From Rickettsiales bacterium (GTDB lineage Bacteria; Pseudomonadota; Alphaproteobacteria; Rickettsiales; Deianiraeaceae): 40,708 nt of DNA. Position numbers and translations under genes: made by a program. The notes under the pieces are model-generated. The model was not told the DNA's origin. It was given only the letters and a program-made list of their open reading frames with translations, and did no database searches. Positions 4,253 through 40,708 of this stretch are shown piece after piece (within the stretch, counting starts at the first letter, position 1; each line of letters begins with the position of its first letter). Location of the stretch: assembly GCA_017477855.1 (NCBI GenBank), contig JAFUUN010000062.1:1-40708 (forward strand), written 5' to 3'.

Positions 4253-4338
4253 GCCGTTGCGCTGCCCGAGGCCACGCCCTCGCCGTTTGGCTGCGCCTCG
4301 TTCCTCGTCGGCCAAACGCGCTCCGCGCCGCGCAACAA
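4253..4338 (+). repeat. GC-rich palindromic intergenic element, short-core type
   Basis: (tt)gccGTTGCGCTGCCCGAGGCCACGCCCTCGCCGTTTGGCTGCGCCTCGTTCCTCGTCGGCCAAACGCGCTCCGCGCCGCGCAACAA. The termini are inverted repeats and there is an internal GTTTGGC/GCCAAAC stem. It lies between the parB start and tRNA-Lys. Confidence 0.9.
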
Positions 4339-4406
4339 TATTACTATTCCGCAAATTGGAAAATTCCCTTGCATTTTAAATTTTATCTTTTTCAGTCAAT
4401 ACTGTC

Positions 4407-4479
4407 GGGCATGTAGCTCAGCTGGTAGAGCAGTTGACTTTTAATCAATTGGTCGTGGGTTCGAATCCCACCGTGCCCA
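4407..4479 (+). tRNA. tRNA-Lys (anticodon UUU), 73 nt, CCA not encoded
   Basis: Manual cloverleaf: acceptor GGGCATG/CGTGCCC (one G-U pair), D arm GCTC-AGCTGGTA-GAGC, anticodon arm GTTGA-CTTTTAA-TCAAT (anticodon TTT at 4440-4442), variable loop TGGTC, T arm GTGGG-TTCGAAT-CCCAC, discriminator A. Confidence 0.9.
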
Positions 4480-4486
4480 CTTTGTT

Positions 4487-5923
4487 GTGTTTATGCCAGA
4501 GCTATCCAAAGAGAAAAGTGAAAACTGGAAAAACAAACTCTACATCGCAGACAATCTTGACGTTTTGAATGGATTAAATAGTGAAAGTGTTGATTTGGTT
4601 TATCTTGATCCGCCGTTTAACTCCAACAGGATTTATGGCAGCACAATGGAACGCAACAGCACGGTATTTAGTGATATTTGGAATTGGAGCGACATTGATG
4701 AATACAAGCTTGACATCATCGCAAATGACTTCCCAGAGCTGGCAGATTATATTGAAATTATTGACAGAATAAGTGATATTCACATGAAGTCATATATCGT
4801 TTATATGGCTCAAAGGGTTATTCAACTAAAACGAATTTTGAAAGATACAGGTTCAATCTACTATCACTGCGACCCAACAGCAGTGCACTTCGTCAAGTTG
4901 ATGTTGGATGGGATTTTTGGGAAAAATAATTTTAGGAATGAGATAAAATGGACTTACAATACCTATTTAGGCAAGGTTGACACGCTAAAATACTTTCCAC
5001 GCAAAACTGATTTGATATATTTTTATAGCAAGAATTACAAGGATTACTACTTTAACAAAGTGCCATTTGGTGAGAATTTTCAAGATACGGTTGACGGCAA
5101 ACGATGGAAGAAATATCTGACAGAAGATGGAACAATTCTTGAAGGACAACATCCAAAAACTGATATAAGATTTAAGGCATACAGAGATAAGTGGATAAGA
5201 GAGCATGGCAGGAAACCACAAAAAGGCGAAGCGATTTACTCTTGCAAAGGAACAATAATTACTGATTGCTGGACTGATTTGAAGGCAGTTGATCCAAAAT
5301 CAAAAGAGAATACAGGCCAACTAACCCAAAAACCCCTTGCCTTACTTGAAAGAATAATAGAAGCATCTTGTCCTGAAAATGGAGTTGTTCTTGACCCATT
5401 TTGTGGGTGCGCAACCACTTGCGTAGCAGCTCAAAGATTGAAGAGAAAGTGGATTGGGATTGACATCTGCGACCTTGCGATGGACTTGTTGACACACAGA
5501 TTGGAGCAGGATGGGTATTTTAAGGATAGAAAAGTTAAGGATCTTGACATGAAAATCAAGGAGCAGGGAGAGGATTTTGACATTTTGAACTGCATAGATA
5601 AAAAGTCAAAGAACTATTCTCCACTGCCACGCAGGACTGATGTTGAGGAGCAAAATTTGAACGAACCGAAGACAAAAAGGGCAATCAAAGAGGTTTTGTA
5701 TCAACAGCAGGAGCACAAGTGCAATGGCTGTGGAAGAGTGCTGGATATTGATTTGCTGGAAATAGACCATATTGTTCCAAAGTCGCATGGAGGTGGAGAT
5801 TATATGGAGAATTATCAGTTGCTGTGTGGGTCTTGTAATAAAATCAAGGGTGCCAAGCCAATGGAGTTCCTTCTGCAAAGAGTGGAGTTGATAAGAAGAG
5901 AGAGGAGAAAGAGGGAGTATTAG
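4487..5923 (+). CDS. Beta-class N6-adenine/N4-cytosine DNA methyltransferase fused to a C-terminal HNH endonuclease domain
   Basis: Motif IV SVDLVYLDPPFNS lies near the N-terminus. TQKPLALLERII plus motif I VVLDPFCGCATTCVAAQRLKRKWIGIDI follow later, which is the beta-class order (PF01555-type). The C-terminus HKCNGCGRVLDIDLLEIDHIVPKSHGGGDYMENYQLLCGSCNKIKG is a canonical CxxC..DH..N..CxxC HNH motif. The track start is GTG 4487; ATG 4493 is the alternative. Either lies only 8-14 nt after the tRNA 3' end. Confidence 0.85.
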   Translation: MFMPELSKEKSENWKNKLYIADNLDVLNGLNSESVDLVYLDPPFNSNRIYGSTMERNSTVFSDIWNWSDIDEYKLDIIANDFPELADYIEIIDRISDIHMKSYIVYMAQRVIQLKRILKDTGSIYYHCDPTAVHFVKLMLDGIFGKNNFRNEIKWTYNTYLGKVDTLKYFPRKTDLIYFYSKNYKDYYFNKVPFGENFQDTVDGKRWKKYLTEDGTILEGQHPKTDIRFKAYRDKWIREHGRKPQKGEAIYSCKGTIITDCWTDLKAVDPKSKENTGQLTQKPLALLERIIEASCPENGVVLDPFCGCATTCVAAQRLKRKWIGIDICDLAMDLLTHRLEQDGYFKDRKVKDLDMKIKEQGEDFDILNCIDKKSKNYSPLPRRTDVEEQNLNEPKTKRAIKEVLYQQQEHKCNGCGRVLDIDLLEIDHIVPKSHGGGDYMENYQLLCGSCNKIKGAKPMEFLLQRVELIRRERRKREY

Positions 5924-6010
5924 AGAGAGGTGATAACGTATGTCTCTGCACCAAGCATTGCTTGCAATGCAAAAGCCACTGCTATAATAAATGCATAGTG
6001 GAAAATTTCC

Positions 6011-38952: not shown

Positions 38953-39217
38953 TCATAGAAAAATGATGAGAAGAATTTTATTTTGCAAGACAGATAAATC
39001 GATTTTTGAAAACAATTCTTGATTTTGTACGAATTACAATTTTTTAATTTTGGTTTGGTTATATGACTGATAATTCAGATTATCACGTTTTTAGTCTGAC
39101 CATAATATATCTGATGATTATTGACCATTAAGCAATATTTACTATTGTTGATAATATACAGGGAATTGAAATTTTCCTTGACAATAAACATCAAATGTTT
39201 TTTCCGATTAACAGAAA

Positions 39218-39868
39218 TTGCGACATATGACAAGCAAGAAGAATACAAAAAAAACAGAAAAAATTGTGCGCGGAAATGGTGTTATATCTCCACTTGCAAC
39301 TGCTGTTTGGTTGGTTGACAACACTGCATTAACATTCAAACAAATTGGTGATTTCTGTGGCTTTGATGAGAAGGAGATCCAGTCAATAGCAGATGGTTTA
39401 ATTGCAAACAATGTTATGCCACTGAACCCAATCAAGGTCGGAAATTTGTCAGCAGAGGAGATAAAAGCTCGCGAAGAGGACGGCAAGCCACTGAAAAACT
39501 CGTTTGATTTGTTGAAAGGATTGGATATTAAAGTTCAAAAGCAAAAAAAATACATCCCAGTTATCCAGCGCAGAAGCCGTCCAGAAGCCGTGTTGTGGCT
39601 GTTGCAATATGCCCCAGAGCTCCTTGACTCACAGATTATCAAACTTGTCCGCACAACAAAAAACATGATACAAATGATACGCGACAAGGTGTATGATGGA
39701 TACAATGAACTCGTGGCAAAAGACCCAGTGATTATCGGTTTTTGCACGCAGAAAGAGTTAGATTTTGAGGTTGAAAAAGCAAGGACAAAAAAGGAACAAC
39801 TCCTTGAAGAAGAGGCTAAAGCCAAGGAGAGAAAAAAGAAGAAAGCAGCGGCACAAAAAAAGAAATAA
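39218..39868 (+). CDS. DUF1013-family protein (alphaproteobacterial; named cell-cycle regulator TrcR in some annotations)
   Basis: PLATAVWLVDNTALTFKQIGDFCGFDEKEIQSIADG, SRPEAVLWLLQYAPELLDSQIIKLVRTTKNMIQMIRDK and DPVIIGFCTQKELD match my recollection of the Caulobacter/Rhizobiales DUF1013 consensus (KATAVWLVDNT.L.F.QIA.FCGLH..E...IADG; AI.WL...HPEL.D.QI.KLIGTTK.TI..VR.R). Confidence 0.7.
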   Translation: MRHMTSKKNTKKTEKIVRGNGVISPLATAVWLVDNTALTFKQIGDFCGFDEKEIQSIADGLIANNVMPLNPIKVGNLSAEEIKAREEDGKPLKNSFDLLKGLDIKVQKQKKYIPVIQRRSRPEAVLWLLQYAPELLDSQIIKLVRTTKNMIQMIRDKVYDGYNELVAKDPVIIGFCTQKELDFEVEKARTKKEQLLEEEAKAKERKKKKAAAQKKK

Positions 39869-39952
39869 TATGTCACGCAAGCATCAAAGAAGGTTTTTAA
39901 ATCGTCATCATAGAGATAACTTGTTCCGCAAGAGCGTCATGATGCTGCAAAT

Positions 39953-40570
39953 TTGTCGCTTTTTCAGTTCTTTTTGAGGAGGAAAGCACCAACTTTATTT
40001 TTCTTCATTTTCCTTATTGCATTCGTGATTTGCATGATTAACGCCAAAACCATTGCGATCAAAGCCAAATCAGTGGTTGTTGCGATTGAAATTTACAGAA
40101 AATACAATGTCAAAATCAGTCCGCGCTATGTTGAAAATATTAGCAGTTATGAGATAAAAGATGTAGACGTTTGCGACCTAAAACTCTGCTCGTGGGAGAA
40201 GGATGACTGCACCGAGTGTGTTAGCGTTTGTTCACAGAAAAATCCACATTTAAGATACATTCAAGGTGATAAAAAACCATATTTGCACCGTATAGAAATA
40301 TGTCCTTCAAGATCAACTGAGAGATTTGATAAACTCATTGAGAGTATGAATAAAAACGGCTATGATCCAGTCAAAAATATCATCAGAATTTGGCCGGACT
40401 ATACCATTCATAATGGTCAACATCGCGCCAGTTGGGTTGCATGGAAGCATGGCAAGGGATACAAAATGAAAACACTGATCGTCCATTATGCCAATGAAGC
40501 TGACAGAGAAAAACACAACATGGATAAAATTGGCGAGCAATCTATTCAAGCACAGAGGAGGAGGAAGTAG
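39953..40570 (+). CDS. Hypothetical membrane-anchored protein with a possible ParB/Srx-like motif
   Basis: N-terminal hydrophobic segment TLFFFIFLIAFVICMI. The C-terminal half GYDPVKNIIRIWPDYTIHNGQHRASWVAWKHG resembles the ParB/sulfiredoxin-fold core (GyDP..pI.v....y.i.dGhHR..A....G). The track start is TTG, so the real start is uncertain. Confidence 0.35.
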   Translation: MSLFQFFLRRKAPTLFFFIFLIAFVICMINAKTIAIKAKSVVVAIEIYRKYNVKISPRYVENISSYEIKDVDVCDLKLCSWEKDDCTECVSVCSQKNPHLRYIQGDKKPYLHRIEICPSRSTERFDKLIESMNKNGYDPVKNIIRIWPDYTIHNGQHRASWVAWKHGKGYKMKTLIVHYANEADREKHNMDKIGEQSIQAQRRRK

Positions 40571-40595
40571 TTCTTGTTCTAATCAGTTTTAACGG

Positions 40596-40708
40596 TTTGT
40601 TGCGCGAGGGCGGAGCGAGTTTGGCCGCCGAGCGGGTCGGAGCGGAGCTGCGACATGGGAGCGAGGCGCAGCCAAACCGCGAGGGCGTGGCCTCGGGCAG
40701 CGCAACAA
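40596..40708 (-). repeat. GC-rich palindromic element, long-core type, inverted; ends at the window edge
   Basis: The reverse complement reads TTGTTGCGCTGCCCGAGGCCACGCCCTCGCGGTTTGGCTGCGCCTCGCTCCCATGTCGCAGCTCCGCTCCGACCCGCTCGGCGGCCAAACTCGCTCCGCCCTCGCGCAACAA. Confidence 0.9.

Follow-up and report, generated by a model that had tools for sequence, protein, structure and literature searches.

The 40,708-nt stretch of DNA analyzed here (the window) contains 11 copies of a GC-rich hairpin repeat with a unit length of 60-115 bp. This repeat family is real and previously uncatalogued, and it is probably, with a likelihood of about two in three, a new selfish family of the REPIN/MITE-like kind, i.e., a familiar type of element.

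Identification of the Repeat Copies

When the window was searched with the 20-mer GCCCGMGGCCACGCCCTCGC, allowing up to three mismatches, 11 matches were found, versus 0.00 expected from 100 shuffles. An nhmmer search and a covariance model (CM), the latter proposed in an earlier, sequence-only reading of this DNA, also recovered 11 copies, so the three independent methods agreed on the number, and all the copies listed in that reading were present. The intact copies had a GC content of 66-74%, compared with 39% for the whole window. The copies and associated features were as follows:

4254..4337, + strand, intact copy with a 23-nt 'gctgcgcc' core (CM 95.6 bits, family D1)
7715..7811, + strand, intact copy with a 36-nt 'caatctcc' core (CM 108.2 bits)
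7813..7837 (approximate, read from the sequence), + strand, duplicated right arm AAGCCCAGCTCCACGCTGGCGCAAC directly 3' of the 7715 copy
14220..14303, + strand, intact copy with a 23-nt core (CM 92.7 bits)
16273..16384, - strand, intact inverted copy with a long 51-nt core and a GTTTTTA/TAAAAAC inner stem (CM 93.0 bits)
17421..17509, + strand, intact copy with a 28-nt 'tatttcgc' core (CM 89.3 bits)
27116..27201, + strand, intact copy with a 23-nt 'gctccccc' core (CM 86.1 bits)
27097..27219, + strand, 123-nt presence/absence unit, made of the 27116 copy with AT-rich extensions on either side (19 nt left, 18 nt right)
28775..28887, + strand, intact copy with a 51-nt core (CM 94.8 bits)
29783..29871, + strand, decayed copy (CM 46.1 bits, 49% GC)
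32879..32938, + strand, truncated copy, core lost and left arm joined to a right-arm remnant (CM 38.8 bits)
35614..35713, + strand, intact copy with a 36-nt core (CM 91.3 bits)
40598..40708, - strand, intact long-core copy, inverted, at the end of the window (CM 90.5 bits)

The second copy had been placed at 7725 in the sequence-only reading; the copy was confirmed, and its start was moved to 7715. It showed 97% identity to the copy at 35614 (D4), and the tandem right-arm arrangement at 7813-7837 was also found in L024, L045, and L070. In the decayed copy at 29783, the left arm was intact, and the core and right arm had drifted towards AT. The parent contig runs on past position 40708, as L071 shows. 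Within the window and two related MAGs, the repeat was found in at least 127 distinct genomic contexts. Its density was fairly regular, at about one copy per 3.7-5.5 kb, and extrapolation from this density indicated that each genome probably contains hundreds of copies.

Anatomy of the Repeat and Its Modular Cores

The outer stem is composed of 8 bp, TGTTGCGC/GCGCAACA; the inverted termini described earlier were observed, with an invariant part of 8 nt and not of 9 nt and with a variable outermost base. A subset of copies has an added AT-rich inverted extension, with TATTGATTT preceding ATGTTGCGC on the left side and AAATCAATA following GCGCAACA on the right. Next comes an asymmetric internal loop, in which the left segment (TGCCCGAGGCCACGCCCTCGCC, about 22 nt) and the right segment (GCGCTCCGCGCC, about 12 nt) are both C-rich, unpaired, and highly conserved, with many columns at least 90% invariant. 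The inner stem, CGTTTGN/NCAAACG, leads to an exchangeable, C/T-rich apical core. The arms match each other only at their termini (8 nt) and in the inner stem (6-7 nt); they do not represent a single REP and its inverted copy.

The proposal of a single family with conserved arms around modular cores held, and the 'at least four types' of core first noticed became at least six classes, with lengths of 23-62 nt. Arm variants and cores formed a mosaic: many site pairs showed all four allele combinations, at least four core classes contained the A:T stem variant, and linkage equilibrium was pervasive.

The Stems Are Maintained as a Palindrome, Probably of DNA

Covariation was analyzed in 101 distinct copies from the window and the two related MAGs. 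In this set, 93.8% of the stem cells were paired, and nine pairs were changed on both sides. The covariation score was 0.146, a value reached by none of the 500 shuffles, which gave 0.054; slid controls gave 0.039 at most. The variable pair of GTTTGN/NCAAAC was G:C in 52 copies, T:A in 27, and C:G in 18; GTTTG/CAAAC was found 88 times versus 10 for GTTTT/AAAAC, and CCGTTTG/CAAACG 82 times versus 13 for CCATTTG/CAAATG. Moreover, the copy at 35614 contained three compensated pairs in its variant, fully compensated terminal stem, GGTGGTGC...GCACCACC, and L032 differed from L010 by two adjacent changes that restore pairing. Wobble was symmetric between strands (38 G:T versus 37 A:C), suggesting that what is kept is a palindrome in DNA and not an RNA specific to one strand. 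The covariation at GTTTGN/NCAAAC claimed in the sequence-only reading thus extended to the larger set, and the upkeep of the hairpin was borne out for a palindrome; by itself, it is no sign of RNA structure, because pairing could be kept by selection or also be the result of hairpin-templated correction or recombination between copies.

Genomic Placement and Orientation

In agreement with the position first described, all copies in the window were located in the gaps separating called ORFs, most often with a stop codon 2-20 nt away, and none was inside any credible ORF. Several exactly fill convergent spacers: the 14220 copy occupies that separating the stop codons of dnaX (14217) and an EamA transporter gene (14308). 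The copy at 35614 is in the convergent spacer between an ispA-like gene and dnaK, the 27097-27219 unit lies between convergent esterase and OMP genes, and the 17421 copy is 9 nt from the thrS stop codon. Divergent spacers contain the copy at 4254, between parB (3183-4202, - strand) and the tRNA-Lys gene (4407-4480, + strand), and that at 28775, upstream of efp. The 7715 copy sits amid two tandem LicD-like paralogues, both on the - strand. The median distance was 8-29 nt to gene 3' ends and 52-88 nt to 5' ends.

The arrangements of flanking genes were divergent in 23 cases and convergent in 21, and the tandem spacers gave 23 versus 19 by orientation, with no preference for any of the three kinds of spacer. 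Orientation was random relative to genes (53/51 by gene strand), GC skew (56/48 by its sign), and neighboring copies (18 with the same and 25 with the opposite orientation), showing no link to transcription or replication. Read on either strand, the flanks were T-rich on the 5' side and A-rich on the 3' side, opposite to the pattern of a terminator, and a terminator scan showed no enrichment, with 11 found versus 11.8 expected. When folded as RNA, the hairpin was stable in either orientation (-29 to -48 kcal/mol), with modest z-scores of -0.5 to -3.1. In some core types, a left-arm mini-hairpin followed by GTTTGTATTT or GTTTTTAA made a weak terminator pattern.

Turnover and Divergence between Strains

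Strains 92-98% identical were compared, and the presence/absence polymorphism that had been suggested as a check was observed. The 123-nt unit at 27097-27219 was present only in the window, with L084 showing an empty site in which AATTTAA is joined to ATAGC, and another unit of 119 nt was present only in L084. Both indels end in A/T runs and take in non-conserved AT-rich sequence, and each could represent a deletion stimulated by the palindrome instead of an insertion. Furthermore, a 1317-nt segment (16105-17421) that includes the 16273 copy was missing from strain L089.

Partial replacement was also found. At the 28775 site, the flanks in L084 were 100% identical, and the left arm and core had been replaced, giving a 35-nt 'gcaccgctacgc' core and a chimeric CCATTTG/CAAACG stem. 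At the thrS site, three genomes carried three element types or orientations: the 28-nt core of the window, a 35-nt core in L089, and a 23-nt core in the opposite orientation in the MAG locus L044.

Otherwise, copies evolve in place at an approximately neutral rate. Orthologous copies of the two MAGs differed at 4.4% and their flanks at 5.2%. Relative to L089, the 4254 copy showed no difference, and the 7715 copy had three substitutions, with two in 240 nt of flank. Compared with L084, the decayed copy at 29783 was about 95% identical, within an alignment of 96.6%, and the truncated copy at 32879 had four differences in 58 nt. The intact copies at 35614 and 40598 were 100% identical in L084 despite diverged flanks, which hints at local constraint; in the MAG locus L035, the ortholog of the 35614 copy was truncated.

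Host Range and Search for a Mobilizing Enzyme

The family was confined to a narrow clade of uncultured ruminant-gut alphaproteobacteria (NCBI label Rickettsiales) with a GC content of about 40%. Only two GTDB species genomes matched, and further matches came from rumen-type metagenomes. In one lineage, with a nucleotide identity of only 83% in its tyrS gene, the arm consensus was almost unaltered. In relatives with 77-83% TyrS identity, whose GC content is 27-35%, the covariance model found no copy in about 104 kb, and nhmmer found none in any of their loci. The consensus, not recognized at first reading, had no match in Rfam, and the repeat had none in plasmids, phages, or viral contigs.

All 37 ORFs of the window were assigned or scanned, and neither a transposase nor a RAYT was found, as the sequence-only reading had reported for transposases. 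The RAYT/Y1 enzyme it had proposed to look for was likewise missing from about 1 Mb of redundant clade DNA from incomplete genomes, both by phmmer with the E. coli RayT and IS1 InsB and by an HUH/Y motif search; since these genomes are incomplete, the missing enzyme is weak evidence. No target-site duplication, a feature also proposed then for checking, was found. The sole multi-copy ORF family was pilin-like.

Origin of the Repeat

The best explanation is probably a non-autonomous selfish palindrome of the REP/REPIN/MITE type that multiplied in the intergenic DNA of one lineage, and a non-autonomous mobile element was the best fit among the three roles initially offered. Copies sit where harm is small, near stop codons and away from gene starts; they are lost or gained between strains, and ectopic recombination or gene conversion often replaces their parts with those of other copies, which leads to modular cores and uniform arms. 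Either strand of the unit may act as a DNA hairpin or cruciform, and the conserved loop segments would be the recognition site of an enzyme that acts in trans from a gene elsewhere in the genome. A single-strand, hairpin-recognizing HUH/Y1 enzyme (RAYT or IS200/IS605-like) would be favored over a DDE transposase, because no target-site duplications were found.

Transposase-independent spread, in which ectopic gene conversion or recombination and hairpin-templated repair alone distribute and swap the GC-rich hairpins, is unlikely; it would make the repeat an analogue of the mobile GC clusters of yeast mitochondria. It would agree with the lack of both transposase and target-site duplications, the chimeric stem between identical flanks at 28775, the linkage equilibrium of arm variants and cores, the pairing-restoring changes between L032 and L010, and the raised GC content of the host; however, gene conversion replaces existing copies and by itself makes none at new loci, the enzyme search covered incomplete genomes, and the two conserved unpaired segments resemble a protein recognition site. 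We also consider it improbable that the copies are host-serving cis elements of transcripts (bidirectional terminators, 3'-end stabilizing hairpins, or insulators) kept for that role, and the first two, both suggested in the sequence-only reading, are unlikely as a general role. The random orientation, the similar use of divergent promoter spacers and convergent ones, the reversed T- and A-rich flanks, the terminator scan, and the modest folding z-scores all argue against this, as do the near-neutral divergence of MAG orthologs, the loss of single copies in close strains, and the lack of the family in sister lineages with the same genes. On its side are the many copies shortly after stops or exactly filling convergent spacers, the stability of the RNA hairpin either way, the weak terminator pattern of some core types, and the two intact copies perfectly conserved between strains.

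Gyrase or IHF binding has been proposed for BIMEs, and genome-wide sites for a chromosomal protein (a nucleoid-associated factor, gyrase, IHF, or a segregation factor) would fit the very strong conservation of the 22-nt and 12-nt segments, the strand-symmetric pairing expected of a double-stranded or cruciform site, and the fairly regular density. This is quite improbable for a family that sister lineages lack, whose copies are dispensable between strains, decay in place (29783 and 32879), and have orthologs evolving at a near-neutral rate. A family of small structured RNA genes is very improbable: the conserved sequence with covarying stems speaks for it, but Rfam gave no match, wobble pairs favored neither strand, orientation was random with no fixed promoter or terminator attached, and the cores are interchangeable and copies decay.

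Comparison with Known Repeats

REPINs and REP sequences are mobilized by RAYT transposases in Pseudomonas and Enterobacteria. REPINs form hairpins whose spacer varies while pairing is kept (PMC3337134), and the window repeat similarly has conserved ends around such a spacer. Both are extragenic units of about 90-110 nt, for the window repeat probably numbering hundreds per genome, that fold into a long hairpin, lack target-site duplications, and are vertically inherited and lineage-specific. Unlike in REPINs, the arms here contain unrelated 22-nt and 12-nt segments instead of inverted copies of one REP, the cores fall into a few discrete shared classes rather than being unique per copy, no RAYT gene was detected in the incomplete genomes, and the repeat resides in an AT-rich alphaproteobacterium that is probably host-associated.

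Correia/NEMIS of Neisseria and other DDE-type bacterial MITEs measure 100-150 bp and have terminal inverted repeats, with a fixed TA target duplication in Correia. The window repeat shares with Correia/NEMIS the size class, terminal inverted repeats, intergenic position often near genes, internal-deletion variants, and the assembly breaks and rearrangements caused; in contrast, it has no fixed target-site duplication, most of its copies have a terminal inverted repeat of just 8 nt, and no related insertion sequence sharing its ends was detected. By description, the pneumococcal BOX and enterobacterial ERIC/IRU elements, for which we know of no mobilizing enzyme, also have conserved end modules around a variable middle and are imperfect palindromes in transcribed intergenic DNA, in both orientations. 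In BOX, the middle consists of tandemly arrayed copies of one boxB unit, whereas here it is drawn from several cores that are unrelated or mosaic.

Rickettsia palindromic elements, with no transposase to our knowledge, likewise multiplied within a Rickettsiales genome as palindromic repeats, each about 100-150 bp long. They are known to insert in frame inside protein-coding genes, whereas no copy of the present family was in a credible ORF; moreover, the window elements are GC-rich islands, and the rumen host is distant from Rickettsia, with a TyrS identity of at most 56% to the nearest named alphaproteobacteria. Finally, the mobile GC clusters of yeast mitochondria, for which no dedicated enzyme is known to us, are also short GC-rich palindromic islands scattered through the AT-rich intergenic regions of a reduced genome; they come in several classes and are associated with recombination. 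This likeness is one of behavior only, as the genetic system differs and the yeast clusters are shorter (about 30-60 bp).

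Detection and setting of the repeat family

Mechanical repeat finding in the window directly retrieved a family of GC-rich palindromic repeats (families D1-D4 and inverted pairs I1-I17). Its best-conserved 20-mer, GCCCGMGGCCACGCCCTCGC, had 11 matches with at most three mismatches, when none was expected from 100 dinucleotide-preserving shuffles, and an nhmmer profile returned the same 11 sites. These copies of the main element are given by start coordinate and strand:

4254 (+), copy
7715 (+), copy with a duplicated right arm
14220 (+), copy
16273 (-), inverted copy
17421 (+), copy
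27116 (+), copy
28775 (+), copy
29783 (+), decayed copy
32879 (+), truncated copy
35614 (+), copy
40598 (-), inverted copy

A covariance model built from 101 distinct copies of the window and two related metagenome-assembled genomes (MAGs), a check proposed with the sequence-only reading, found these 11 sites and no others in the window. That reading had announced a real family of 12 copies or fragments, every one intergenic. Three independent methods, against a chance expectation of none, bore out the family, and all the copies in the window indeed lie between genes. The copies and fragments were all present, except that the second copy begins at 7715 and not at 7725, and that the supposed right-arm fragment (7813-7837) is actually a tandem duplicate of the right arm, a duplication also seen at loci L024, L045 and L070. 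When the window was scanned with the Rfam covariance models at E ≤ 1, tRNA-Lys was the sole match, leaving the main element with no matching family.

Intact copies have a GC content of 66-74%, against 39% for the window, and the copies sum to about 1.0 kb, or 2.5% of its length. With 37 called ORFs the window has 36 spacers, 11 of which contain a copy, and gene assignment placed everyday housekeeping genes next to the copies (parB, tRNA-Lys, two LicD-like paralogues, dnaX, an EamA transporter, hflC, thrS, an esterase, an OMP, efp, rpsF, tyrS, an ispA-like gene and dnaK). Overall, 86 of 87 classifiable copies were located between ORFs; the single one scored as inside (L034) falls in a doubtful ORF that spans two repeats.

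Anatomy of the element

The alignment of the 101 copies showed an outer stem, TGTTGCGC/GCGCAACA, that is at least 90% conserved; the inverted termini had been put at 9 nt, and the truly conserved part is 8 nt. Two unpaired segments are highly conserved, one of about 22 nt on the left (TGCCCGAGGCCACGCCCTCGCC) and one of about 12 nt on the right (GCGCTCCGCGCC), and the inner stem is CGTTTGN/NCAAACG. The unpaired parts are pyrimidine-rich, and the top strand has a strong bias towards C (C 44%, G 26%, T 19%, A 11%). The cores, 23-62 nt long, fall into at least six classes, in keeping with the at least four modular types recognized before. The short classes, named by their first bases, are gctgcgcc (23 nt), tcatctcc (25 nt), tatttcgc (28 nt), gcaccgctacgc (35 nt) and caMtctcc (36 nt), and the long cores measure 49-62 nt, some being plainly composites of shorter ones. 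The cores differ between copies, yet they lengthen the stem. About a dozen copies at unrelated loci carry an AT-rich outer inverted repeat (..TTAAAACAnGCTATTGATTT-ATGTTGCGC ... GCGCAACA-AAATCAATACAAAAA..), with which the terminal inverted repeat reaches about 18-20 nt. Since this extension is common to unrelated loci, the ancestral unit was probably longer than the GC island.

Covariation of the stems

Standard pairs filled 93.8% of the cells of the named structure in the 101 copies, and both-sided changes were found at 9 of the 22 pairs (106 cells). The covariation score was 0.146, versus 0.054 after shuffling, and none of 500 shuffles reached the observed value, although this control overstates the significance because the copies are mutually related. 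When partners were slid by 1-3 columns, the score was 0.039 or lower. The support was located in the outer and inner stems, so the earlier claim that the stems covary held. Individual copies gave further examples: the 35614 copy has a terminal stem with three compensated pairs, a CCATTTG/CAAATG pairing recurs in 13 copies across four core classes, and two neighbouring changes separate L032 from its ortholog L010, making a 9-bp stem perfect again. A small left-arm hairpin, CGAGG/CCTCG, showed no covariation in the 101 copies and was rejected; it is disrupted in 16 copies, 13 of them through an A-to-C change and three through an A-to-T change.

Wobble pairs were strand-symmetric (38 G:T vs 37 A:C). 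Strand-specific wobble as a sign of RNA was thus rejected, and the equality indicates that the pairing belongs to a DNA palindrome and not to one transcript. Quasi-palindromes can mutate by hairpin-templated correction, a well-established process, which together with recombination between copies could yield covariation without selection on RNA.

Placement and transcription-related readings

Along the top strand of the element, both flanking genes pointed the same way as the element in 23 cases and both the opposite way in 19; they faced each other in 21 cases (convergent) and away from each other in 23 (divergent), approximately the proportions expected of random spacers. Orientation was independent of local GC skew (56 vs 48) and of gene strand (53 vs 51), and neighbouring copies shared it in 18 cases and differed in 25. 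An orientation bias was therefore discarded, the 9:2 strand ratio of the window vanishing among 104 copies.

An intrinsic terminator has a GC-rich hairpin with a T-run after it on the transcribed strand, and a bidirectional terminator was one of the roles first suggested. The flanks are T-rich 5' and A-rich 3' of the element on either strand, which is the reverse of what such a terminator has. A terminator-pattern scan of the copies showed no enrichment, copies were as frequent in divergent spacers as in convergent ones, and folding z-scores were modest. Both the bidirectional and the Rho-independent forms are thus disfavoured, and so is an RNA gene, the Rfam scan of the window having matched tRNA-Lys only; a terminator or RNA reading of the main element is disfavoured overall.

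Position was non-random: copies lay closer to stop codons (median distance 8-29 nt) than to start codons (52-88 nt), a pattern that would follow from the removal of promoter-disrupting insertions. Outward-facing, -35-like TTGACA-ATT(A) boxes lie 5-25 nt beyond either end of many copies (for instance in the left flank of the 28775 copy and at L005, L018, L042 and L044), and left flanks are often preceded by a GC stem and T-run (ggccgattttttt). Judging by these motifs, copies seem to sit between the terminators and promoters of neighbouring genes.

Variation between MAGs and strains

The two MAGs are about 95% identical in the flanks of the copies. Ten orthologous copies differed at 4.4% of sites, compared with 5.2% in 80-nt flanks, suggesting that the copies evolve roughly neutrally; no sign of purifying selection was found in this comparison. 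Several orthologs differ by a change in core length or an internal deletion. The window was also compared with the scaffold_143 strain (loci L084 and L089; 92-98% identical), and here the selection signal was mixed: three copies were identical, two had 2-3 substitutions within almost identical flanks, and two decayed copies drift.

Presence/absence differences, a comparison proposed with the sequence-only reading, were found between these strains. A 123-nt unit (27097-27219) is missing from the other strain, where the empty site reads ...AATTTAA/ATAGC..., and a 119-nt diverged copy adjoining efp occurs only in the other strain, within an A/T run. The ends of both indels fall in A/T runs, and both take in AT-rich bases that are not conserved; either may have arisen as a palindrome-stimulated deletion and not as a new insertion. 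The copy at 28775 has flanks that are 100% identical between strains, but its entire core and a portion of its left arm are exchanged for another class. The resulting CCATTTG/CAAACG stem is mismatched, which is the mark of a partial conversion tract. The thrS site holds three different classes in the window, in L089 and in the MAG locus L044, one of them inverted. Moreover, arm variants and core classes were near linkage equilibrium, with all four combinations at many site pairs, indicating that the copies recombine with one another as a population, and this accounts for the modularity of the cores.

Breaks in synteny between the window and the MAGs fall exactly on copies (window 1015/L012 4355; left flank of window 28775/L045), and the neighbourhoods of TyrS differ in each related lineage looked at. 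The repeats may therefore mediate rearrangements.

Distribution and host lineage

The window belongs to a 48-kb ENA metagenome contig (ERZ27256839:k141_96005). An exact-pattern scan of one genome per species (185,579 species) matched at least 70 loci, and only two species were among the matches listed, the MAGs RGIG3562 (goat rumen) and SRR873596_bin.56, both labelled Rickettsiales. A scan of JGI metagenomes matched at least 120 short contigs, those listed coming from just a few metagenomes. Searches of viral contigs, plasmids and phages gave zero matches to the main element, and an origin in any of these was rejected.

With TyrS as the lineage marker, the DNA around its homologues was fetched. 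The family was present with an almost unchanged consensus in lineages of at least 89% TyrS identity (L080, L084-L087, L089 and L090), which have about 40-42% GC. Seven loci of relatives at 77-83% identity (L075-L079, L082 and L083) had neither a copy nor a GC island; nhmmer was run on all seven, and the covariance model on about 104 kb. Repeat-bearing lineages (window, L080, L084, L090) have about 40-42% GC and the repeat-free relatives 27-35%. The family is thus limited to a narrow, GC-raised clade. The repeat explains only about 1 percentage point of this gap, showing that the composition shift was genome-wide.

Mobility and relation to known repeats

No k-mer duplication exceeded the shuffled expectation at any boundary offset, so the target-site duplications that had been proposed for inspection did not appear; many copies are older than the species splits, and short duplications could have decayed. 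Of the two comparisons of an empty with a filled site, one left room for a duplication of 0-2 nt and the other for no more than an ambiguity within an A/T run.

As the sequence-only reading had stated, the ORFs of the window include no transposase. REPIN/RAYT systems have a cognate, single-copy RAYT (HUH/Y1) gene, usually with the repeats on either side of it. In about 1 Mb of redundant clade DNA from fragmented MAGs, phmmer with E. coli RayT, the single RAYT query, and IS1 InsB gave nothing below E = 0.1, and an HUH/Y motif search gave no candidate. No left arm-ORF-right arm arrangement, as in a parent insertion sequence, was found in the incomplete genomes. These negatives carry little weight, since it is precisely at the repeats that the genomes are broken up. 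The ORF at 16414-17118, between the inverted copies 16273 and 17421, was rejected as RAYT-like: it has a signal peptide, ends in ...VGVQF and matched no family, and by these features it looks like an outer-membrane beta-barrel protein. Multi-copy ORFs in the same incomplete genomes included no transposase-like family and were rejected as transposases, being pilin-like instead. They form a large type IV pilin-like paralogous family (L006, L013, L026, L044, L062, L064 and other MAG loci) with an N-terminal ...FTLIELSIVLL... and a conserved C-terminus, ...ELDAKIDDGRPGSGK...YGCNIIKVMEDVK, and many of the genes are located at contig ends.

REPIN/RAYT was the closest match among known systems: REPINs are hairpin-forming doublets of one REP in inverted arrangement, similar in size, extragenic and lineage-specific, with a variable spacer in which pairing is kept (PMC3337134). 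The main element resembles them in density (11 copies in 40.7 kb), in its exclusively intergenic position, covarying stems and variable cores, and like REPIN/RAYT it shows no target-site duplication. Unlike a REPIN, it is not built from a single REP present twice in opposite orientations. When the reverse-complemented right arm (TGTTGCGC-GGCGCGGAGCGC-GTTTGG) was set against the left arm (TGTTGCGC-TGCCCGAGGCCACGCCCTCGCC-GTTTGG), agreement was confined to the 8 terminal and the 6 inner nucleotides, and on this tested defining feature the element falls outside the REPINs.

DDE-type MITEs such as Correia have terminal inverted repeats, a fixed target-site duplication and a parent insertion sequence. 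The main element shares the terminal inverted repeats (TGTTGCGC/GCGCAACA) but not the fixed-length duplication, though short ones may have decayed. Rickettsia palindromic elements insert in frame within protein-coding genes; by description they share the host order, whereas the main element does not enter genes. BOX and ERIC are, again by description, comparable in modularity. Integron attC sites came into consideration through the conserved ends and variable centre; they have a 5' RYYYAAC and a 3' GTTRRRY, and each is linked to a gene cassette. They were rejected, as the ends are reversed here (GTTGCGC 5', GCGCAAC 3'), GTTGCGC does not fit GTTRRRY and the neighbours are housekeeping genes. 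Collectively, this is a real, dense and previously uncatalogued family; it joins the well-known class of bacterial intergenic palindromic repeats, with nothing outside known kinds.

A selfish, non-autonomous palindromic repeat is the best-supported reading, and a non-autonomous mobile element was among the roles first proposed. Such a repeat would be maintained as a DNA hairpin or cruciform and homogenized by ectopic recombination, and the two conserved unpaired segments would likely be the protein recognition site. With no target duplications seen and a hairpin architecture, the mobilizing enzyme would more probably be of a single-strand HUH/Y1 type. A bolder alternative dispenses with the transposase: a self-correcting GC-rich hairpin replicator that colonizes AT-rich spacers and swaps cores by gene conversion and hairpin-templated repair, a bacterial counterpart of mitochondrial GC clusters that would have arisen in a Rickettsiales-like host-associated lineage alongside the genome-wide GC rise from about 27-35% to about 40%. 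Yeast mitochondrial GC clusters are, by description, likewise GC islands in AT-rich spacers, and the partial conversion tract at 28775 would suit this proposal; the enzyme searches speak weakly for it, and we consider it improbable.

The family is a useful, compact natural setting in which to study the persistence of palindromic repeats: several sister genomes offer copy populations for comparison, core swapping, compensatory stem changes and loss are all visible, the phylogenetic boundary is sharp, with close relatives entirely element-free, and the enzyme is missing. Establishing the mobilizing enzyme, or its absence, would help with an old question, the manner in which REP-like and GC-cluster-like repeats spread. 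Many MAG contigs end inside a copy, which indicates that the repeat breaks assemblies and explains the poor assembly of the genomes of this rumen lineage; annotators gain a new repeat and covariance model to mask.

Other sequences in the window

4493-5920 (+), ORF fusing an N6/N4 DNA methyltransferase domain to a C-terminal HNH nuclease
6691-7656 and 7996-8940 (-), tandem LicD-like (cholinephosphotransferase-type) paralogues flanking the 7715 copy
16112-16230 (+), second GC-rich dispersed repeat, about 125 nt long and unrelated to the main element, whose AT-rich tail extends to about 16268
20526-22644 (+), mevalonate-pathway genes
32363-32824 (-), EF-hand protein
32955-33125, 171-nt AT-rich stretch beside the truncated copy
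37656-38666 (-), YopJ-type acetyltransferase

The second repeat (consensus TTGCGCGGCCGCAGGCCTTGACTTGTCAAGGGCGGAGG...GCCAAAGGCCCCGCACG...CGTGCGCAGGGGCTTTGGCG) has at least eight further copies in the two MAGs, folds into two long hairpins and had no Rfam match; it is too conserved to show covariation. It often adjoins a copy of the main element, in no fixed orientation. In the close strain L089, a 1317-nt segment (16105-17421; 1.3 kb) is swapped for 14 nt. This segment contains the second repeat, the inverted copy 16273-16384 and an ORF (234 aa; signal peptide, C-terminal Phe) that resembles an outer-membrane protein, and one boundary of the segment is exactly the left terminus of the 17421 copy. 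The stretch 32955-33125, missing in strains L084-L087, has a TTGACA...TATAAC promoter-like pair and a tiny ORF, and lies outside the repeat family.

The YopJ-type acetyltransferase, the EF-hand protein, the mevalonate genes and the VirB3 present in relatives suggest, from gene content, that this rumen lineage lives in association with a eukaryotic host. The length of the second LicD-like paralogue differs among strains (321, 310 and 227 aa). The methyltransferase-HNH ORF adjoins tRNA-Lys and a repeat copy and is kept in strains L089 and L093, and its HNH part also matches the HNH region of IscB and Cas9 models.
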